64,000 nucleotides of DNA. It comes from Eledone cirrhosa. Taxonomy: Eukaryota. Of this stretch, positions 1,270 through 17,677 are shown piece after piece; position 1 is the stretch's first letter; each line of letters opens with the position of its first letter. The DNA lies in NCBI GenBank assembly GCA_964016885.1, contig OZ024740.1, positions 2,604,001 through 2,668,000 on the forward strand, given 5' to 3'. Both the position numbers and the translations under genes were made by a program. The notes below the pieces were generated by a model. It was given only the letters and a program-made list of their open reading frames with translations. It did no database searches and was not told the DNA's origin.

Positions 1270-1450
1270 GGCACAAGGCCAGTAATTTGGGGGGAGGGGA
1301 AAGTCAATTAAATCGACTCCAGTACATTATTGGTACTTTATTTTAACGACCCGTAAGGATGAAAGGCAAAGTTAACCTCGGCGGGATTTGAACTCAGACC
1401 GTAAAGGGCCGTAACTCTTTGCTTCAAAGCATGGTGTCCGCCTCTCTAAT
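1270..1450 (-). mobile_element. tRNA-derived SINE with Nin-like central domain (degenerate)
   Basis: Minus strand has B box GAGTTCAAATCCC followed by GCCTTTCATCCTTACGGGTCGTTAAAATAAAGTACCA, which resembles the Nin-type domain of mollusc SINEs. Confidence 0.7.
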
Positions 1451-1462
1451 GATGTTCGATTC

Positions 1463-1575
1463 GTTTGTAAACAAACGGCCCGATTTGAAGCTGTGCTGTG
1501 TCGGTGACCGATCGTCACCTGTTTGTTCAACACTGGCTTTGAGGAACAATCAACATCTTTCTGGTATCAGCTGTG
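1463..1575 (-). mobile_element. Diverged fragment of the hammerhead-bearing ~430-bp element family
   Basis: Shares GTTTGTAAACAAAC, CCCG, GTTTGTTCAACACTG, AGGAAC and TTTC..TCAG in the same order as 5066-5180. Confidence 0.6.
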
Positions 1576-2854: not shown

Positions 2855-2957
<103 letters not shown>

Positions 2958-3021
2958 GTAAATATACACGGGTGTGTATGATTGTGTATAGAAGAATATA
3001 TTAATAAGAGGAATTCCAATT

Positions 3022-3257
3022 CCTTAGGGGTATCTGACGGACATTTGGGTCTCTGATTTGCTGACGGTGTACCCGTGCACGTTCCGATAGTGCATTTCCA
3101 GTTTGACCGACATATAGTTCTTCACAATTCGGGCATTTAATGCAGTAAATTAGATTTCTGCTTTTGCAGTTCATATTTGCATTTGGGAATATTTTTCCAG
3201 TTTTTGTTTTCATATATTGACCAGCGTGTATTGTTTTCATATATTGACCGGCGTGTA
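3022..3257 (-). pseudogene. GIY-YIG endonuclease N-terminal half (inverted fragment)
   Basis: LIY-CIKCPNC-EELYVGQTG motif in ORF 3001..3285; includes a 27-bp tandem duplication at 3204-3257. Confidence 0.85.
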
Positions 3258-3293
3258 GTATATATATATACATACATGCACACATATATATAT

Positions 3294-3482
3294 GTACACC
3301 GTCAACAAATCAGAGACCCAAATGTCCGTCAGATACCCCTAAGTAACCATCTAGCAACATGTGGTCAGGGAATATTTATAATATTCCCATTCTACAAATT
3401 ACACAGCCCAAGTGAAATCAAGAGAAAAATCAAAGAAAAGAATTTTATTGATAAATTCAAACCCAAGCTAAATGAACAATAA
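3294..3482 (+). pseudogene. GIY-YIG endonuclease C-terminal half
   Basis: Tail of ORF 3177..3482 with conserved H, E and the terminal P-x-LN motif. Confidence 0.8.
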
Positions 3483-3529
3483 TAACGCCTAGGGGTATTA
3501 CTTCTACTACCACTATGACTACGACCACT

Positions 3530-3562
<33 letters not shown>

Positions 3563-3578
3563 AATAATAATAATAATA
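3530..3578. repeat. (AAC)n(AAT)n microsatellite
   Basis: Direct reading. Confidence 0.9.
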
Positions 3579-3879
3579 AAAGTGATGTTGATGGTGATGA
3601 TTAATAGAAAATGCTATTTTCATCATTTCTAAAAATAGCAAAACAATTGATGCTTTGGATATGATTAATTATTGGTCGTTAGACATGCTCAACCAGCCGT
3701 GACGCTTAAACCAATCAGCTTTAGTAATTCAGTGAAACTACACACTGATTGGTCGAAATACAGTTTGCAGGGCTTAGCATTCTGGAGCCACTTTTCCCTG
3801 TATAAAATGTATGAAAGGTAGGAAATTTACCCATCTTATTACAGTTGAAAATTGCAAACTTGACTGTCACCACATATTA

Positions 3880-3918
3880 TGAACCTGAAGATTGCGAAAG
3901 CATGAAAGTACTTGTTCA
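3880..3918 (+). ncRNA. Minimal type I hammerhead ribozyme motif (Penelope-associated)
   Basis: TGAAC-CTGAAGA-T-TGC-GAAA-GCA-T-GAA-AGTACT-T-GTTCA: stem I TGAAC/GTTCA, intact core boxes, GNRA-capped stem II, palindromic stem III. Confidence 0.75.
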
Positions 3919-4027
3919 ATTAACACTTAGAATTTAATATTCTATCATACTATATCATTATAATACCATTATAAATTTTAAAGGATTGTAAATAAAACGA
4001 GTAAATCAGACAAAGTTGGAATTCCTC

Positions 4028-4033
<6 letters not shown>

Positions 4034-4098
<65 letters not shown>

Positions 4099-4152
4099 AC
4101 GAAGGAAATGTGGTACGGAACCAGAAGGACCATAACGCACCAAATTACTCAA

Positions 4153-4200
<48 letters not shown>
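4034..4200. repeat. (TA)n/(CA)n tracts separated by a short unique spacer
   Basis: Direct reading. Confidence 0.85.
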
Positions 4201-4203
<3 letters not shown>

Positions 4204-4565
4204 TAAACGGAAACGAAAATGCTGACAAATTGTTCCCAGTGAAAGATAGTTTAATTAGGAAAAAGTAAAAATTAGTAATAGTATTGGTTAGTATTCAGTT
4301 TTGGTTTTAAGTTTTACCGGTTGCGCATTTCTAATGCTTTTCAAAAATAATTTTGAGATAGAGCGCCCGTGATGTTTGCTCTAATCTGATTAGTTTTGGA
4401 AATTCTACCTGTTTTATGTGAAAAAAGTGGCTCCAGATGTATTTAAATTAGTTTCGCGCCAATTCGTGTTGCAAAAATTCTTGTGGTCAAAACAATTTTG
4501 ATTGGTCGGTAGAGGTCATTTGAATGTTAAAAATTGATTTAGTGCCAAATGTAGGTTTGTGTCGG

Positions 4566-4629: not shown

Positions 4630-4633
<4 letters not shown>

Positions 4634-4674
4634 CGAAACATAAGTCAATTGCATGAACTCATAACCCTTTATTT

Positions 4675-4731
4675 ACTGGTATATATATTTCGATGGTAAC
4701 CATTGCATGGCTATGACCTCATCAGGCAGTT
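4675..4731 (-). ncRNA. Degenerate minimal hammerhead motif
   Basis: Minus strand reads ACTGC-CTGATGA-GGTCATAGCCATGCAATGGTTACCATC-GAA-ATATATAT-A-CCAGT. Stem II is TAGCCAT/ATGGTTA, stem III is palindromic, and there is a C-C mismatch at the base of stem I. Confidence 0.5.
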
Positions 4732-4788
4732 AGTCAGTTCTTAGATATGTCAGATGTGTGTTTATAGTGTTGATGGTATCAGAGCCTT

Positions 4789-4929
<141 letters not shown>

Positions 4930-5143
4930 GTATATAAGTATGTATACGTACATACATATATGTATACAGACGTACAGTAGTATGTATATATATATACATA
5001 CATGCACACACATATATATATATGTACATATGGATTCACCGAACATTTATTATAATGCTCGGTGTGTTTGTAAACAAACATCCCGTATTAAGCCGTAGTG
5101 TCTAGCAACCATCGTTGCTCGTTTGTTCAACACTGACAAAGGA

Positions 5144-5186
5144 ACGCTGTACTAGTTTCAAGCTTATTAGCTATTGTCAGCAACGT
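5144..5186 (-). ncRNA. Hammerhead motif with core mutation (CTGACAA)
   Basis: Reverse complement equals 5537-5579 except G8 to A in the CUGANGA box. Confidence 0.65.
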
Positions 5187-5536
5187 ATACCTTCCTGCCA
5201 GATGGTTGAACGTCTGAAAGTATAAACTTTCCTTATGCACATTAACGGCTCAGCAGCCTAATTTGTATATCGAGTGAGTTAATCGGCCGGGGTACCGAAA
5301 ACGATAAACGGAAAAATGAAACGAAATTTCATTTCCCACTCTTAGTACGGCTGTTACTTAAATATAAGTATGTATACGTACATACATATATGTATACAGA
5401 CGTACAGTAGTATGTATATATATACATACATGCACATATATATATGTACGTATGGATTCACCGAACATTTATTATAATGCTCGGTATGTTTGTAAACAAA
5501 CATCCCGTATTAAGCCGTTGTGTGGCAGGAAGGTAT

Positions 5537-5579
5537 ACGTTGCTGACGATAGCTAATAAGCTTGAAACTAGTACAGCGT
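5537..5579 (+). ncRNA. Minimal type I hammerhead ribozyme, intact core
   Basis: ACGTTG-CTGACGA-T-AGCT-AATA-AGCT-T-GAA-ACTAGT-A-CAGCGT: 6-bp stem I (one G-U), 4-bp stem II, palindromic stem III, GUA triplet with predicted cleavage after 5573. Confidence 0.8.
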
Positions 5580-5809
5580 TCCTTTGTCAGTGTTGAACAA
5601 ACGAGCAACGATGGTTGCTAGACACTACTGCTTACTACGGGATGTTTGTTTACAAACACACCGAGCATTATAATAAATGTTCGGTGAATCCATACGTAAA
5701 TATATATATGTGTGCATGTATGTATATATATATACACACTACTGTACGTCTGTATACATATATGTATGTACGTATACATACTTATATTTAAGTAACAGCC
5801 GTACTAAGA

Positions 5810-6188: not shown

Positions 6189-6223
6189 GTGGTCTTTCCC
6201 ATCTTTTCCACTCTATTTTAAAC

Positions 6224-9200
6224 ATGACCTCACTCAGAATAGGCAGCATAAATGCGCGTGGCTTGGGGGTCGTCATGGAAGCAGGGTCACCTGCTCAACG
6301 ACCTCAGGTCACTAAACATAGATGTAGTGGCCATCAGCGATACCAGAATCTCCGAAGCACGGGCCTTCGCACCGATCTTCGGCGGCTACGATGTGTACGC
6401 ATCTCCCAGCCGTCCTGGATCGGGGGGGGGGGGGGGGGTTGCTGTGCTTTTTCGGAGAGGTTTGGATCTCGCCATACGGGCCATCTTCCTGGACCCAGAG
6501 GGTAAGTTGGTGGTGCTGGACGTGACCAGCGGAGACGGGAAAGCTTTCAGGCTAGTGGCCGTCTATGCCCCGACAGGAGCAGGGTCGCCTGATTTCTTCC
6601 GGCGTCTGGAGACCTTTCTTGGAACGTCCTGCTCTTTAGTGTTAGTGGGCGACTGGAACGGGATCTTAGATGCACGCTGGGACTGTGTGGGATTAGCGGA
6701 TAGGGGTGGAGGGTGCAAGAGCCTCACCAACCTGCTCAGGCGTTTTGAACTGTCTGACAGGTACCGATTGGATTTCCCGAATGTGCCAATGTAGACTTGG
6801 ACAAATCGCATAGGGTCATCCAGATCATATCTAGATAGAGTATTTTGTAGGGAAATAGATAGGTCTAGCATAGGCTGTCCACAATTCAAGATAGTCAGCT
6901 ACACGGACCACAAATTCGTGATCTGTGTGCTTGACTTAGAGAGGCTTCATAGACGAGGACCCGGCTACTGGAAGCTAAACGCGTCCTTACCAGCTCGCAA
7001 GGCCTACAGAGACCGGATTAGCGAACTAGTTAAGCGGGCGTTGACGGGGGCCATCGTCAACAACAAGTGGTGGTTTGCTCTGAAAAGAGCCATTAGAATA
7101 GAATCGATTAGGTTTAGTAAGGCTTTAGCAATAGAGAAAAATAGAGCAGAGGGAGAACTAGTTAGAAAATTAGACGAGGCGCTTAGCAAAGGCATTGCAA
7201 CTGACGTGCTTGCGGCGAAATTGGCCCTTGACCAATTCTTCAATGCAAAGCACGAAGGCTGCGTTGTCAGAGCAAGGGTGCGTGCTCTCAGACACGAGGG
7301 GACGAAAGCCGTTCAATGGGCCCGAGTGGTGGAGGCGCGTCGTGGCAACAAAGCCACGATCCGGTCTTTGGTGGACCACGACGGGCGCATGCTACTCGAT
7401 CCCGGGCAAATGTGTGAAGCTTTTCAGCGACACTTCGCTCAGCTGTTCGGGGGCAGCGGTGGGCCGGGTCGAGGGATGGACTTTAGTGTCTACCTCGACG
7501 GACTGCCGCGGCTCTCGGCCACTGAGGCGAAGTGTTGCGAAAAGCCGATAACAGCCGCTGAAGTAAGGGAGGCAATGACTGGCTGCACAAGGGGTAAATC
7601 GCCTGGTTTGGATGGTCTGCCCTATGAACTTTACGTACAGATGCCAGACTTGTTTGGAGGCCTCTAAGCGGACGTCTACTGCAACTGGCAACAGAACGGG
7701 AGAATTCCCAGTTTTGTGAGCCGAGGAGCGGTGGCACTGCTGAGAAAGGATCCGAACAAGGGGTAACATAGATAATTTCCGGCCCATAACTCTGCTAAAC
7801 ACAGAGTTCAAGATTTTGGCCAAGGTGCTAGCAAAGAGGTTGGCGCTTGTCGTTGATGGTCTGGTGGGAGAGGCGCAGACATGCGCCATTCCCGACAGAT
7901 CCATCCACGACAACCTCCACCTCATACGATACATCGTAGAGAGGGTAGCTAGGAAACCTGGCACGGGTGGGTCCTTGATCAATTTAGATCAGTCGAAAGC
8001 TTTCGATAGGGTCGACCATCGTTACCTAGCGGCAGTCCTGAGGGCGGCTGGCTTTGGGCCCGTCTTCAGAGGCTGGATCGCTGCCAGGCACAGCGACATC
8101 TGCTCTGTGGTGAGAGTGAACGGTCACTTGTCGGAACCGTTCAACATCATGCGCTCGGTCCGCCAAGGATGTCCCCTCTCGTCCCTCTTGTACGTATTGA
8201 CTCTCGAGCCATTACTGCACAAACTGGAGACGTTGAGGGGCGTCCCGCGCGAACTAGGATGTGGAAGATCCGTGTCAGCATATGCGGACGATGTCACCGT
8301 AGTGGTGTTGAACGCCAAACACATCGAGGCCATCGGCACTACACTAAGAGAATACGAAGCGGTGACAGGAGCAATGATCAACCAGGAAAAGTCAGTGGGC
8401 CTGCAGCTCGGCACCTGGAGAGGCAGGTCCATGCCGTCCAACAGCGTCGTCGGACGCTGGACGGACGGACCGGTTAAATTGCTAGGGGTCTGGTTCGGTC
8501 CGGACCTCCAGACGGACAAAAACTGGGACGAGGTGACGAGCAGGGTGGCTTCTCTCACCCAGAAATGGGCGGAGAGGGAGCTATCCCTGAAAGCTCGAGC
8601 GGAGGTGGCTCACGCGTACATCGGGTCTGTCATCTGCTACCGCCTGACCGTCGTACCTTATCCTAAGCCTCGCCTGACTGCGCTGGAGCGTTTGCTCTTT
8701 CGCTTTTTGTGGAAGGGACGCGCTCCGATGGTCAGGCGGTCCATCTGTTGTCAACATCCGCTACGTGGAGGGCTGGGCATGCCGTGGCTGATAATGCGCA
8801 GGCACTCGCTCAGGCTACGACATCTCCACCTCTTCCTCGACGGTGATCACGTGTGGTCGCCGTTTGCTAGACACGTATTTCCCCGGCTCGTTTCGTTGAC
8901 GGAGTTGCAGTCCTGGGTCAAGCGAAGACCGAGAGGGAGCGCCTGGAGACTGGAATGTCTTCAGGCGCTCACAGCCCTCAACCAATCGGGCAATGTGATC
9001 GGTGAAAACTCCACCTCGGCGTTCTATAGAGGATTAGTGGAGGGGAAGAGCGACGACGTACTTGGGGAAACTCTAGGCGTCGACGAAAATCAACTAGCCA
9101 ATCTCTTCGGAAGAACTTTCGGGCCAGGGCCTATGGACAACTTCCAGAAATCTCTGGCCTGGCAGTGCTACCGAGGAGCCTTGCCAGTTCGGGATAAACT

Positions 9201-9648
9201 CTACAGGCATGGAGGTGCCGTCAGCCGGGCATGTCCGAGATGCGCGCAGGGCAACGAAACCATCCTGCACGCACTCGTCCAGTGTCCGAAAATTGCTGAC
9301 TTGTGGGTTTATGACGAACACCTGCTGTCGCGTGTAGGACGGATCCGGCTATCATCTGAGTCCATCGTGAGGATTGCCCCGCCCTCCTCCTTTAGCCGGG
9401 AAGGGCAGGCAGTTTTTATCTGTCTGGTGGCCATGGCGAAAGAGATAGTATGGTGGACACGTTTGAAAGGGCTGAAGACGAGCACTTACCTCTTCGGTGA
9501 TGCTCTGATTGACTTTTTCAAATTTCATTTGAAAAGGAAAATCAGAGTAGAGAGGGAAGTGATCTCTTCCCAGCATTTTGCTGAAAGATGGGTGAGAGAA
9601 GCAAGAATGGCCCGAGTGAATGGGCCTACTCTGAGTATATATCTGTAA
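6224..9648 (+). pseudogene. Disrupted ORF2 (APE endonuclease, reverse transcriptase, zinc knuckle)
   Basis: Motifs SINARGL, VYAP, GDWN, SYLDRV, GPGYWKLN, KSPGLDGLP, LDQSKAFDRVDH, SVRQGCPLS, YADD, GGLG and CPRC..ETILHALVQC. Frameshift near 6270, stops at 6792 and 7665, frameshift near 7770. Confidence 0.93.
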
Positions 9649-9930
9649 ATTAAAGGTGGAAAACTGGGAGAGGGCACTTGCCTTGGTGGTCAGGGTCACT
9701 GTGGCCTTTTACTGGGCTTTCTCCACAAATGTCCCTCCGAAGTCTCCCCCTATTGGGGAATTTTTCATTGTTATTTTTTTGTTACATCCTCTGTTTTTGT
9801 TTTTTACACGCAGAAATGCCCATTTGTACCGGCCTGTATTGTCCTGCACTGTCCTTAATGTATACTTTATGTAAACCCTTGTGGTTAATAAAGAAATCAT
9901 TATTATTATTATTATTATTGTTATTGTTAT

Positions 9931-12900
9931 TCCTTGAATCTCAGTCATTGATGTTGGTTAACTGGAAAGTCCGTTGGATTGAATATCAAGCCACTACCTG
10001 CAGCCTCAGATATTCAGGACGTATCGGAGGGTTCTTGCTGTTCCAAGCAAGCATGCCTTTTGAAGCGTTCCAAAAAGCGTGAAGGGGCCGATTTTCTTTA
10101 ACCATCCCTGGAAACCTTTGGAGATAGTCCCCAGTGCGCCTATGACAATCGGGATCACTTTGACTTCATGGCAGTTCCAAATCCTTTTCACCTCCCACTT
10201 TAGGTCCTGGTATCGGTTAATATTCTCCCTCTCCTTCTCTTGCACTCTCGTGTCGAATGGGCAGGCCACATCCACAATCAGGCACGATCTTTTTTCTTTG
10301 TCCACAACCACCAGGTCAGGTCTATTGTGTTCCAGTTTCTTGTCCGTCTGTATCCTAAAATCCCACAGCACCTTCACCTGATCGTTTTCTATCACCGCCT
10401 CTGGCTTATGCTCATACCACTTCTCAGAATGTGGTAAATTGTTTACTTTGCATAGGTGCCAGTGGATCACCCTGCCCATCACATCATGTCTCCAGCCCTT
10501 ATAGTTAGTCTGGGCTAGGTGTTTACACTCGGATACAATGTGAGCTACAGTCTCCTCTCTCCACAGATCCTGCACAGTGGGCTAGCCTCCTCCTTGTAAA
10601 TATGGTGTTTCAACCACTTCGTTTTGAGAGCTTGCTCCTGCGCAGCCATTAACATTCCTTCTGTAGCCTTTTTAAGGTCTCCTCTTTTCAGCCAGTTCCA
10701 TGTCTGTGGATCTCTAAATTCAGTTTTCTCAAAGAAGGTACTATGAAGGGATTTTTCCTGAAGGCTGCTCTTCCTCCTTGATGTTATTTACTCCTTGGAC
10801 ATCCCCTGGCCTATTGTCCCCTCCTTCAGTTCAGTTCTGAGCATTGGCTCCTTACTATCAGTCACGTATTTGTGTAGGTTGTTTTTCTCCATCTGAACAC
10901 AGTCCTCTATGCTGATAAGGCCTCTTCCACCCTCATACCTCCTTAAATAGAATCTATCGACATCACTCCTCTTGTGGAACATGTAGATAGTCAATAGCTT
11001 CCTAGTCTTCCTATCCATTTCTTTCTGTTCAGCAACATTCCATCTCAGAATTCCCGCACTGTACCTAATAATAGACACAGCTCGGGAATTTACTGCACTT
11101 ATGGCATTCCTACTGTTCAGATGTGACTTTAATATGCTCCTTACTCTCCGAATGTATTCAGTTCTTATCAATTCCTTCATTTTTTTGTTCTTGATGTCAT
11201 CAGCCTCCAGAACGCCCAAATACTTGTATCTTTCTTCAGAGTCAATTTCCTTTATCATCTCACCCGTTGGTACCTGCATTCCGTTACTTCTGCTCAACTT
11301 ACCCCTCTTCATCACAATGACTCCGCACTTACTAATACCAAATTGCATACATATATCATTGCTGAAAATACGGACAGTGTCAACAAGCACATCCAACTCC
11401 TTCTCACTCTTCCCGAAGAGCTTAAGATCGTCCATGAAGAGGAGGTGATTGATGGTAAGCCCTCCCTTTCCCAACCTGTATCCTGCTCTCACTTTTCGCA
11501 GTACACTGGTCAGGGGAATCAGGGCAAGGACAAACAACAGAGGGGACAGACTCTCTCCCTGGAAGATACCTCTCTTGATCTTCACGCTTCCCAAGGATTC
11601 TCCAGTTGATGTTAACTCTGTTTCCCAGGACTTCATACTTTTGCCCAACAACTGTCTGATGTTATCTGCCACCTTGAAGATCTCCAGGCTTTTGGTGATC
11701 CAAGAATGAGGCACCATGTCAAATGCCTTTTTGTAGTCTATCCATCCCATGGCAAGACCAGTGTGTCTCCTCTTGCAATTCCTCATTGCCATCTGATCAA
11801 TAAGTAACTGGTCCTTTGTACCACGTGACTTCTTTCGGCATCCTTTCTGTTCGTCCGGTAACAAGTTGTTTGTGTGGAGGTGATGGTAGATTTTCTCAGA
11901 CACAATGCTTGTCAACAGTTTCCACATTACGGACAGGCATGTGGTAGGTTTATAGTTGGTAACATCATTACCCTTGATTTGGTCTTTCATTATCAGAACT
12001 GTGGTACCTTTTGTCAACCACTCTGGTACCTCACCTGACATCAAGCAGTCATTGAACATGGTTGTCAGTTTCGGGTGGAGGGATGTTATATTTTTAATCC
12101 AATACCCCTGCACACCATCTGGGCCTGGTGATTTCCAGTTGGTTAGTTTTTTGGCCTGCCCCTTAAGAGTTTCAACTGTGATACTCAAATCAGTTTGTTG
12201 GTGTGCCTGTTCACTAATCTCCTTCTGTACTGTCTCAATCCACACTGCCTGGTCATTATGTTTAACACCCTGCTCCCACATTCCTCTCCAGAATGTTTTA
12301 GTTTGTTCCGCCTCAGGGATCAAGTCGTTGCCTCTTTCTTTCCCTTCAAGCTGTCCAAACAGCATCTTCTGGTTGTTGTCGAACATGCGGTTCTGTCTAT
12401 ACTGGCTGACTCTGTTCTCGTATTGCCTGATTTTTGCACTCTTTGCTACAATGCGTTGCTTCAGTTCCTCTATGATAATATTTAGCTTTTTCCTCCTAGT
12501 TTTGTACTTTATTTCCAGTCTATTTTTAGTGTCTATGTTTTTTAGTGTCCCATTCAGTAGGGACTCAAGCTTTCAAATGTCATTTCTCATTTCCCTGATT
12601 TAACCACTCAGTCGTTTCTTCCACCAAGGCTCTGCTCTTTCTTGTCTGTTGTTTCCTCTCGCTTTTATACCAAGTAGTTTCCTCACCGTATTTGCTGTTG
12701 CTTTGAGGATATTGTTGCACTGGTGAAGGCTCCTCGCCTCAAGGTATGGGATGACTTTGTTTACCTTAGCTGTTGTTTCTTTTAACTTTTTCCTGTCTAC
12801 AAATCTTAGGTTCATAGGTCTCCCACTATCATTGTTCAATTCATCTACCACTAAGTTTAGGATATCAACCAAATCTCGTCCTAGCCCATCAGCATTCATC

Positions 12901-13500
12901 TCCTCAGTGGCCGTATCTCTGTTCCAGGTATTATTTATCTCAGCATTCAGATCATTGTCTGCTTCGGGTGGTTCCTCCGTTCTCTCGACCTCTTCACCTT
13001 CATTTCCCACTGGCTCGTTTGCCTGGCATACTCCACTCTCTATCTCCAACTTAATCTCTCTGCTCAGTTCCTCCAGTTCCAACTCCCTTATCCACCCATT
13101 ACTTCTTATTACCCGAGCCTGCCAGGCCAATTTTTGTTCGTCTAATTTAAATAGACCAATCTCGTTCCAGATGTTATGCATCCGTTTCCTATAGCCTTTC
13201 TCTTTGGGGTTACTCTTCAGGTAACATTGCATAACAGTTCTATTCAATTATTTCGTCCAGTTGGTTCTGGTCCCTTTCCTTCTTCTTCTTCATCCGACAC
13301 CAGCAGTATTTGGTTGACAGCCAGGTCCCTGCTGCTGAGCCAGGGAACAGCTGTTGGGTGAGAGTCTGTCACATGACATTCCAGTCTCCACTTCACCGTT
13401 ATTCGAACTGTTTAGGTTCGATATTTAAACACTCTTATCGAGGATTGGCGAATGTATGGTTACATAACCACCGGTGAATTCATCCTCTCCGGTGGTTCCG
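9931..13500 (-). mobile_element. Near full-length R4/Dong-clade non-LTR retrotransposon (disrupted)
   Basis: N-terminal MQCY..GYRKRMHNIW..EQKL motif; RT motifs WKSPGPDGV, IDYKKAFDMVPH, GIFQG..LSPLLF, FMDD, YKYLG and GGRGL; CCHC-RHD; RLE domain NRPDLVVVDK..IVDVACP..PIVIGALG. The 3' end runs into (TAA)n; the 5' boundary is approximate. Confidence 0.92.
10006..13270 (-). pseudogene. Single R4/Dong ORF broken into three pieces
   Basis: ORF track pieces 12600..13247, 10788..12386 and 10006..10575 are collinear parts of one RT-RLE protein, separated by stops and frameshifts. Confidence 0.9.
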
Positions 13501-15259: not shown

Positions 15260-17677
15260 TTCATTTCCCGCCATTACCAATGACTGCAGGTGTTGAAGGC
15301 CCCCCACCACCACCACCACAGCGACAACAGAAACAAAAGAAAAAAATTACCTCGTGACATAGAAATGGATTCACCCAGAATCGACTCTGCCACACCGAAC
15401 ACCACTGACTCCACCACCACCACAACTGAAACTAAAAATAACAATAACAAAAATAACAATAACAACAACAGCAACAACAACAATGAGAATAACAACACCG
15501 TGTCTTATGCCAAAGCAGCCAAAAAATGCGAAACAATCCAGGTAACTCAGGAGGAATTAGATGAAGCCAAGAGAATGGTAAAGAAAGATGGGTACAGGGT
15601 CAGCCCCCCTCCCCCACCTAATAAAATGGAGCATCGGCGCCTATGCACCGTGTCTTATCGGACGATTAACATAAAATCGCGCCGAGTGGAACAGGTATCC
15701 GAGTCCCCCCCAAAAAGCTTTGGGACAGGTGTGGGCAAAAAAACCCACATCAGACGTGGGCAGAAATATGGAACCGTGGACGTTTTCTTTGGAACACCAC
15801 AGGAGGCCAGAGAACACTCCATGTCCCCATTAAGAAGCGACGACTTCACACTCGTCCCAAGCTATTGTGGCCAGAGACTCGTAAAGATCAGAGTGACCCA
15901 CGTTCCACCGGCCATCGAAATTCCCTGGCTAATGGCTGCCATCATCGCCGGCATCGAGGCCAACACCAAAATAATCGAAATAGGAAAAGGAAAAAAGGAG
16001 AACAGGTCCGGATCTGGGATGGAGCTCCTGATCCAAGCGGACCAAAAAAGCATTGAGATCCCAGAGGTAATAGACCTCACTAACGGCAGCCACCTCACCG
16101 TAATCGTCGAGGGTAGAAGGCCTTGGTGTGTCGTTTGTGGTGAAGGAACCCACCTAAGGGCTTTCTGCCCTCAGGCTAAAAAGTTGAGGCTACCTCTCTT
16201 ACCCACACCAGTGACTCAACCATCAACACCACCAGCACCAGAAATGGCAGCAACAACTGTAGCAGCAACAACAGAAGCAACTGTAGCAGCAACAACCCCA
16301 ACAACAGTAGCAAAACCAACACCACTATCAACCAACGCGCCAGAACTAGCACCAGCGCCTACACCATCCATCATGCCACAACCAAAACCAACGCCTGTGG
16401 AGGATTTTCCACTCCCCGACCTATCGCAACTGGAGACAGATTGTGACGACGAGGCGTGGGAAACGGTATCAGGAAAAAAGAAGAAAAAGAAAAAGAAGCC
16501 AAAAAAGAATAAAATCCTCTTCCTTCCCCCTCCAAAAACAAAATACAGAAGGAAACAAATAAACTATCAGCTACATCTCCACCTCTTCCTCGACGGTGCT
16601 CAGGTGTGGTCGCCATTTGCTAGACCCGTCTTTCCCCAGCTCGTCTCCTTGACGGAGCTGCAGTCCTGGGCCAAGCGAAGACCGAGAGGGAGCGCTTGGA
16701 GACTGGAATGTCTTCAGGCACTCACAGCCCTCGACCAGTCGGGCAATATGATCGGTGGAAACTCCACCTTGGCGTTCTATAGAGGAATAGTGAAGGGAAA
16801 GAGCGACGACGTACTTGGGGAAACTCTAAGCGTCGACGAAAATCAACTAGCCAATCTCTTCGGAAGAACTTTCGGACCGGGTCCTATGGACAACTTCCAG
16901 AAATCCCTGGCCTGGCAGTGCTACCAAGGAGCTTTTCCAGTTCGAGATAAACTCTACAGGCATGGAAGTGCCGTCAGCCGGGCATGTCCGAGATGCGCGC
17001 AGGGCAACGAAACCATCCTGCAAGCACTCGTCCAGTGTCCGAGCATTGCTGACTTGTGGGTTTATGTTGAACACCTGCTGTCGCGTGTAGGACGGATCCG
17101 GCTATCATCTGAGTCCATCGTGAGGATTTCCCCACCCTCTCCCTTTAGCCGAGAAGGGCAGGCAGTTTTTATCTGTCTGGTAGCCATGGCAAAAGAGATA
17201 GTATTGTGGACGCGTTTGAAAGGGCTGAAGACGAGCACCTACCCCTTCGGTGATGCCCTGATTAACCTTTTCAAATTTCATTTGAAAAGGAAAATCAGGG
17301 TAGAGAACGAAGTACTCTCTTCCCAGCATTTTTTTTTAAAGATGGGTGAGAGAAGCAAGTATGCCCCTGTAAATTGAAAGTGGAAAACTGGGAGAGGGCA
17401 CTTGCGCTGGTGGTCAGGGTCACCGTGGCTTTTTTATGGGCTTTCTCCACAAATGTCCCTCGGAAGTCTCCCCCCTATTGGGAAATGTTTCATTGTTTTA
17501 TTTTTTGTTACATCCTCTGTTTTTGTTTTTTTAAATTTTTTTACACGCAGAAATGTCCATTTGTACCGTCCTGTATTGACCTGTACCGTCCTGTATTGTC
17601 TTGTATTGTCCTTAATGTTTTTCTTTGTGTAAATCCTTGTGGTTAATAAAGAAAGCATTATTATTATTATCATCATT
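15260..17677 (+). mobile_element. Tx1/L1 ORF1 joined to ORF2 3' end (endonuclease and RT missing)
   Basis: Gag-like ORF1 from ATG 15365 with zinc knuckle CVVCGEGTHLRAFC. From ~16571 the sequence is near-identical to 8815-9920. AATAAA at 17645, then an (ATT)n tail. Confidence 0.88.
15365..17377 (+). CDS. Open chimeric ORF1/ORF2-C-terminus reading frame (transposon-derived, function unproven)
   Basis: ORF track 15290..17377 is uninterrupted; first in-frame ATG at 15365; the last ~12 codons are frameshifted by a T run at ~17329. Confidence 0.4.
   Translation: MDSPRIDSATPNTTDSTTTTTETKNNNNKNNNNNNSNNNNENNNTVSYAKAAKKCETIQVTQEELDEAKRMVKKDGYRVSPPPPPNKMEHRRLCTVSYRTINIKSRRVEQVSESPPKSFGTGVGKKTHIRRGQKYGTVDVFFGTPQEAREHSMSPLRSDDFTLVPSYCGQRLVKIRVTHVPPAIEIPWLMAAIIAGIEANTKIIEIGKGKKENRSGSGMELLIQADQKSIEIPEVIDLTNGSHLTVIVEGRRPWCVVCGEGTHLRAFCPQAKKLRLPLLPTPVTQPSTPPAPEMAATTVAATTEATVAATTPTTVAKPTPLSTNAPELAPAPTPSIMPQPKPTPVEDFPLPDLSQLETDCDDEAWETVSGKKKKKKKKPKKNKILFLPPPKTKYRRKQINYQLHLHLFLDGAQVWSPFARPVFPQLVSLTELQSWAKRRPRGSAWRLECLQALTALDQSGNMIGGNSTLAFYRGIVKGKSDDVLGETLSVDENQLANLFGRTFGPGPMDNFQKSLAWQCYQGAFPVRDKLYRHGSAVSRACPRCAQGNETILQALVQCPSIADLWVYVEHLLSRVGRIRLSSESIVRISPPSPFSREGQAVFICLVAMAKEIVLWTRLKGLKTSTYPFGDALINLFKFHLKRKIRVENEVLSSQHFFLKMGERSKYAPVN

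Follow-up and report, generated by a model that had tools for sequence, protein, structure and literature searches.

An ORF-less hammerhead repeat with Penelope-type insertion ends in Eledone cirrhosa, a probable animal non-LTR retrozyme

The sequence at positions 4932-5809 of a 64,000-nucleotide stretch of Eledone cirrhosa DNA at C1:2604001-2668000 (hereafter the window) is a damaged, two-armed copy of a 430-nt repeat that carries a hammerhead ribozyme, contains no open reading frame (ORF) and has insertion ends of the type made by Penelope-like elements (PLEs). We estimate at about two in three the probability that the family is an animal non-LTR retrozyme for whose copying and insertion a Neptune-like Penelope enzyme acts in trans. 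The broader reading, in which the repeat is non-autonomous and Penelope-driven whether its RNA template is a circle or an uncleaved multimer, can be held with considerable confidence, the circular-RNA step being its less certain part. The family is likely to be a parasite that borrows Penelope-like enzymes to spread. The class is already known; what is added here is that a hammerhead unit without an ORF bears the Penelope 'tail' footprint.

The unit is numbered q1-q430 in the sense of the hammerhead, which is the reverse complement of window positions 4932-5361. Self-BLAST and mapping to this unit divide the locus into one full unit on the minus strand (q430 to q1, 4932-5361), a partial upstream unit in direct tandem with it that lacks the hammerhead (q261-q430, 5362-5523, minus strand), and an inverted arm on the plus strand (q162-q430, then q1-q22, 5523-5809), with the plus and minus arms joined head-to-head at 5523. 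The direct repeat (4932-5101 against 5362-5523) shows 93.5% identity, its two copies being offset by 430 at their TA-rich end and by 422 further inside, and the inverted repeat (4932-5200 against 5523-5787) shows 96% identity. The tandem and inverted copies of the original prediction are therefore present as repeats, but there is a single full unit and not a tandem of full units. The outer end at 4932 is the short fixed 3' end of the family ('S', ...CATACTTATAT), after which a TA/CA microsatellite begins. The 58-nt 'tail' segment that lies between the family's two fixed 3' ends (q1-q58) is internal here, at 5304-5361 on the minus strand, while the tail of the inverted arm (5788-5809, plus strand) ends early at q22, most copies reaching q58; self-BLAST finds the remainder of this shortened tail nowhere else in the 64-kb window. 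A TA-rich, self-complementary end segment (q326-q430) occupies 4932-5036 on the minus strand. Three hairpins that had been named in the original prediction were located by motif reading and in the fold of the natural unit at 5037-5064, 5065-5080 and 5104-5119, and they recur in other arms. The only frames that touch the 430-nt unit at this locus are simple-repeat frames.

The upstream region of an L1/Tx1-type LINE (6200-9650, plus strand; APE endonuclease, RT and zf-RVT, interrupted by stops) adjoins the shortened tail at 5809. A second LINE with an RT lies at 10006-13247 on the minus strand and presumably, from its motifs, has a C-terminal restriction-like domain; a 697-aa frame at 15284-17377 (plus strand) has an end resembling that of the 7744-9648 ORF; and a 48-bp satellite of 963 copies with a strong strand skew fills 18289-64000.

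A type I hammerhead with an intact core is found on the plus strand at 5537-5579 by motif reading, Rfam alignment and covariation; its positions are numbered here by the standard hammerhead convention. Helix I is ACGTTG/CAGCGT (6 bp), the core CTGACGA leads into a helix II of AGCT/AGCT (4 bp) that is closed by a U.U mismatch and followed by GAAA, and helix III is the palindromic ACTAGT, that is, 2 bp with a palindromic loop. The cut that had been predicted after 5573 agrees with the cleavage triplet GTA at 5571-5573. The structure reaches 5530-5584 once an outer helix and the 3x1 internal loop of helix I are counted, this loop aligning with that of Rfam HH9. In a narrow scan the entire HH9 model (RF02275) could be aligned to 5525-5596 (E=0.0069), although its 19.7 bits fall far below the gathering score of 52. 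Scanning the whole window with Rfam gave no hammerhead at E<=1, only low-complexity miRNA-model matches that come from the TA-rich end at 4932-5036, and a locus of a sister family gave no hammerhead at E<=5.

The second hammerhead copy of the locus, at 5144-5186 on the minus strand, has the core CTGACAA in place of CTGACGA and is predicted to be inactive. This change, G8 to A at 5175, is a CG to CA substitution of the kind expected from CpG decay; in four sequencing runs (contigs, uninformative about expression) nearly all of the depth at 5175 carries the family base. With one hammerhead on each strand, and that of the minus strand mutated, the locus could release no monomer and would be a dead end.

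The motif at 5537-5579 had been described as a complete minimal type I hammerhead, and it is indeed an intact type I, but it is not minimal. Minimal hammerheads, as defined in PMC4209133, have a long helix II, a short helix I and a conserved G10.1-C11.1 pair, and the unit departs from all of these with its 6-bp helix I, 4-bp helix II and U.U at 10.1/11.1; its predicted build comes nearer to what the same source calls the 'canonical' animal type I, the kind that requires a dimer. The U10.1.U11.1 mismatch is common to the hammerheads of the unit, of the autonomous family PLE-A and of family B1 in this genome, and is reported in PMC3088659 as a natural variant and the best-tolerated mispair.

On the evidence of covariation, the hammerhead is a structure under selection. 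The isolated motif folds no better than shuffles (z -0.5 to -1.3), and the natural unit folded as a circle gives z=-6.1 in the hammerhead sense and -3.9 in the antisense; since q1-325 alone gives z=-2.7, the TA-rich end supplies part of this score. We aligned 24 sequences (23 distinct), 16 of them from the family, picked by eye for diversity and an intact core, and 8 from the 15 sister loci, namely those with a complete 5' half. In this alignment of both families pairing holds in 93.5% of cells, and in 6 of 16 pairs both partners have changed, compared with 31-46% of cells and at most 3 pairs in slid controls, and the covariation score for the 23 distinct sequences is 0.33 as against 0.04-0.09. 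Two of five shuffle measures were not exceeded (293/500 and 338/500), and the covariation rests mostly on two related families, implying few independent events. The sister family alters helix I, helix II and the outer helix with pairing kept throughout. It came to light through a weak match at window positions 1449-1535, and a fragment of it lies at 1430-1545 (minus strand); it is about 70% identical to the unit over its whole length, is ORF-less (in 45 loci) and has a covarying hammerhead with A.A at 10.1/11.1, the palindrome ACATGT replacing ACTAGT, and a GUU site. Its search yielded 1,602 candidates and 160 exact cores.

The original prediction implied a unit repeated across the genome with its core nucleotides conserved between copies, and both expectations are borne out. 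Exact matches to a 33-nt core pattern number 23,390 in the 3.0-Gb genome, against none for the reversed control; at about 23,000 x 430 nt the family is estimated to make up some 0.3% of the genome. A DNA search returned 2,214 candidates, the 39 scored giving at least 75 matches on nine contigs, mostly 93-98% identical, and in 130 segments of young copies 3.2% of bases depart from the column majority. The best-match loci and one long array supply 82 full hammerhead copies, 65 of which keep an intact core. The unit, 430 nt long with 37% GC, is within the 150-450 bp, low-GC range of retrozymes, and subfamily periods near 422-430 and 466-540 nt are seen in the first 100 matches listed, those up to about 500-540 nt belonging to older subfamilies. 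The detailed analysis used 80 loci, 55 from the first pattern matches (intact cores in the first 22.5 Mb of contig C1) and 25 best matches; both sets are biased toward hammerhead-bearing copies, which inflates arm lengths and cut-site crossing. Tandem hammerheads, by which retrozymes are recognised, are absent from the present locus but present in the family: two exact cores stand in direct tandem at 14 of the 55 loci, and a 21-kb tandem array at C1:51772396-51793781 (L058, L059, L129), probably enlarged by unequal crossing over, holds 50 units, 41 with an intact core.

The same genome retains many long open Neptune-like ORFs. The young family PLE-A, labelled Neptune-like because of a C-x4-C-x2-C motif between RT and GIY-YIG domains, has full copies with two overlapping ORFs, of 476 aa (no Pfam hit) and 775 aa (RT + GIY-YIG); canonical PLEs are described as having a single ORF. 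The period of PLE-A is near 4.2 kb, its hammerhead has 5,173 exact matches, and many of its arms (L131-L160) begin within a few bases of one another, at a truncation hot spot (q3820-3832) that precedes the hammerhead core by about 45 nt. The window contains a two-armed, 5'-truncated PLE-A insertion at 2952-4036, with its own hammerhead at 3881-3917 (plus strand), a solo pLTR of the Neptune-like family B2 at 4100-4560 (minus strand), a 3' half-motif of a hammerhead beside a TA tract at 4630-4650 (plus strand), and a further hammerhead-like motif at 4680-4735 (minus strand) that has an ATATAT helix III and a build like motifs in L191 and L209. Hammerhead cores of families B1, B2 and C (L161-L210) have U3-A8 instead of C3-G8, a variant described in PMC4209133, and an ACCGGT palindrome.

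It is the ends of the insertions that point to the Penelope machinery. From 88 insertions we dropped 3 that were cut by a locus edge and scored 85. Outer ends fall at two sites 58 nt apart, q430 (short) and q58 (tailed), and both enter (TA)n, which hides any target-site duplication. Head-to-head insertions, with variable inner ends, account for 41 of the 85; both ends are at a fixed site in 34 of these, and in the other 7, the present locus included, one end is off-site. Among the 34, the pairing is short with tailed in 33, short with short in none and tailed with tailed in 1 (p=4e-9 against 50:50), the single tailed-tailed case (L022) being in fact two adjacent insertions of the short-tailed kind; two rows from L092 look like a single duplicated insertion. 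The control family PLE-A obeys the same rule in 9 of 9 two-armed cases (among 25 insertions), again into (TA)n, with a tail of about 46-48 nt, and two ends are also visible in families B1 and C. According to PMC11167929, the tail is unique to PLEs and is the stretch between two RT start sites, both target strands being cut and extended; an optional one-sided tail and an inverted copy are likewise described as PLE traits in PMC3846280 and PMC8557442. Seen on a unit that has no ORF, such a footprint suggests that a PLE enzyme acts in trans. Both the fixed ends and the TA target are direct observations, and a Neptune-like Penelope enzyme is the likely agent that copies and inserts the unit; the Penelope-type enzyme that had been proposed thus gains direct footprints in the tail, the head-to-head arms and the (TA)n target.

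Could the unit instead be the pLTR of a rare, extinct or missed autonomous PLE, with the known copies as its 5'-truncated stumps? PLE-A itself consists mostly of ORF-less stumps (19 of 25 copies), and the loci that we examined are about 80 of several thousand. Nevertheless this explanation is improbable. Copies flanking an RT/GIY-YIG ORF had been named as the mark of an ordinary pLTR, and a PLE ORF is joined to the unit in none of the 80 family loci, compared with 6 of 25 PLE-A insertions that reach the ORF. Pieces of PLEs do occur somewhere in 28 of the 80 (tblastn with two PLE proteins, then with ten ORF stretches of this genome), but for each of the five same-sense matches within 1.5 kb upstream, what stands between it and the unit is its own pLTR or end, or unrelated repeats. 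An all-against-all comparison of 51 upstream segments shows no common entry point from non-unit DNA, apart from two loci that have in common an RTE-like end adjoining a TA tract, and where an arm exceeds one unit the sequence that comes next is the previous unit and not an ORF. PLE-A, by contrast, has no short same-strand tandems among the first 100 matches listed, only spacings near 4.2 kb, and an ORF is likewise lacking in the sister family. When 116 PLE-bearing loci (partly redundant; A, B1, B2, C, D and others) were searched with a profile of both families, the unit served as the pLTR of none, every match there being a separate unit insertion or fragment; nor does the unit's tail resemble any autonomous tail seen in this genome, and no helper sharing its 3' end or pLTR was identified in these loci, which sample the genome's PLE families. 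A DNA-level repeat (satellite, foldback or MITE-like) that carries the hammerhead as a passenger and spreads by recombination or DNA transposition is less probable still: the 21-kb array and the likeness of two-armed copies to foldback elements would suit it, but terminal inverted repeats would not give outer ends that differ, short against tailed, and inner ends that scatter, and the pattern equals that of the RT-encoding PLE-A.

Individual candidates for a parent or helper were examined and set aside. Apparent template switching at L053 and L054, where units stand beside PLE-A ORFs, proved to be nested insertions in TA tracts; the PLE ORF about 1.2 kb upstream at L091 and L124 belongs to a family that has a hammerhead and an end of its own, beyond which the DNA is unrelated; and the upstream DNA shared by L100 and L111 is a 3' end ahead of a TA tract, which we take to be RTE-like. 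L185 and L201 are separate unit insertions next to other PLEs, and the DNA between match and unit rules out L099, L102, L112 and L250 as joined PLEs. Short words that look alike in the unit tail and the B1/B2 ends are too AT-rich to count. At L231 a unit array stands about 2.7 kb downstream of a GIY-YIG match, the intervening stretch having been read in part.

What was the template? Of 125 arms with an end at a fixed site, 106 extend beyond the cut site, a proportion that the sampling inflates, and the cut site shows no excess of inner ends (5 of 100, with 4.0 expected). Among the 61 pattern-chosen insertions, 36 have at least 490 nt on one strand and 13 at least 800 nt. Copying therefore passes the cut site, often for more than one turn of the unit, which would make the template a circle or an uncleaved multimer and not a cut linear monomer; multi-unit arms could come from one cut linear monomer only with template jumps. 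L1-type twin priming on a linear monomer was rejected since the arms overlap in sequence and exceed one unit. Non-majority bases are shared at 1.75 per 100 sites between tandem units of one insertion (43 pairs, 26 loci), 1.10 between its inverted arms (35 pairs, 22 loci) and 0.49 between different insertions (7,969 pairs, which are not independent). This pattern fits one template per insertion, and a circle and a homogeneous multimer would fit it equally. A non-autonomous Penelope parasite might then be copied directly from the uncleaved multimeric transcript, with the hammerhead binding protein or cutting slowly and no circle needed. The crossing of the cut site, in a biased sample, and inner ends that avoid no part of the unit are as this would predict, long young arrays are available as sources, and an anole PLE uses unprocessed RNA in vitro, where hammerhead mutants still insert and the hammerhead is dispensable (PMC11167929). 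We still consider such a template unlikely, since the core, the helices and the dimer-forming palindrome are kept between families about 30% apart, and circles are the form in which the animal retrozymes of this build that have been described accumulate (PMC7229834). Against the retrozyme reading itself stand the poor cleavage of PLE hammerheads (PMC4209133) and the in vitro cleavage of only 1 of 9 predicted Xenopus retrozyme dimers (10.64898/2026.07.22.740005).

In the retrozyme cycle that we favour, tandem loci would be transcribed into multimers in which two hammerheads, pairing through their ACUAGU palindromes, would cut after GUA, and the 430-nt monomers would be ligated into circles, as in described retrozymes. 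A Neptune-like RT/GIY-YIG protein would nick (TA)n, the target seen at the insertions, and cDNA would begin at two sites 58 nt apart, one per target strand, corresponding to the fixed ends observed. Copying would cross the cut site, often for more than one turn, as the arms record, and the two cDNAs would be joined at variable points to give the observed head-to-head geometry. A more specific version is offered tentatively, and is doubtful as it stands: a dimeric Neptune-type enzyme might copy the circular 430-nt RNA directly, its two subunits priming the two nicked (TA)n strands at the two fixed sites on the same RNA, always one each. If this were true, the 58-nt tail alone would be a portable PLE insertion signal, with structure rather than sequence in common with the helper, and the ORF-less lineage would be old enough to have split into families 30% apart.

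Mobilisation of animal retrozymes by PLEs has been argued before from co-occurrence and pLTR similarity, according to PMC7229834 and 10.64898/2026.07.22.740005. The word 'tail' is absent from the main texts of both, whose supplements may bear on the matter, and our literature search, by title and start of abstract, found no report of a PLE tail footprint on a retrozyme. The PLE-specific tail and inverted arm, on a unit with no ORF, are a mechanistic trace of the retrozyme-PLE link. The family also provides a natural substrate that is small and whose start sites, q430 and q58, are predicted exactly, and makes it testable which helper enzyme acts, whether the template is circular and whether two primers are extended on one RNA. 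The class being known, the finding is useful rather than startling.

Comparison with known systems places the family most naturally beside the animal non-LTR retrozymes, whose hallmarks of a type I hammerhead, a short low-GC unit, tandem cores and the lack of a joined ORF it carries, whereas it has the properties neither of an autonomous pLTR nor, by its predicted structure, of a minimal PLE hammerhead. Its hammerhead resembles the minimal PLE hammerheads (PMC4209133) and HH9 in its type I core and short, dimer-needing palindromic helix III, but has canonical helix I and II lengths, U.U for G10.1-C11.1 and a score far under the HH9 gathering value. Non-autonomous Chlamys PLEs, such as MRC1 of Chlamydomonas, also form multicopy head-to-tail insertions, but according to PMC8557442 they resemble an autonomous family at the 3' end and belong to a clade without canonical hammerheads, whereas the unit has one. 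With EN+ PLE insertions, as PMC3846280, PMC8557442 and PMC11167929 present them, the family shares head-to-head arms, a tail on one end, a microsatellite target and a hammerhead upstream of the ends; it differs in having no RT/GIY-YIG ORF, in a repeat unit of 430 nt as against about 4.2 kb in PLE-A, and in a tail of 58 nt where theirs is an optional 30-40 bp. As in the animal retrozymes of PMC7229834 and 10.64898/2026.07.22.740005, the unit is short, non-coding and low in GC (37%), carries a type I hammerhead and is found as monomers, dimers and long arrays, in thousands of copies beside autonomous PLEs. A matching autonomous pLTR is given there for 21 of 57 Xenopus families, whereas none was found for this family in the 116 PLE-bearing loci, and cleavage and circles have been demonstrated for coral, mussel and axolotl retrozymes, the present family being known from its sequence. 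In contrast to the available accounts of those retrozymes, the ends have been mapped in this family, which has a (TA)n target, arms placed head-to-head and a tail of 58 nt between two fixed 3' ends.
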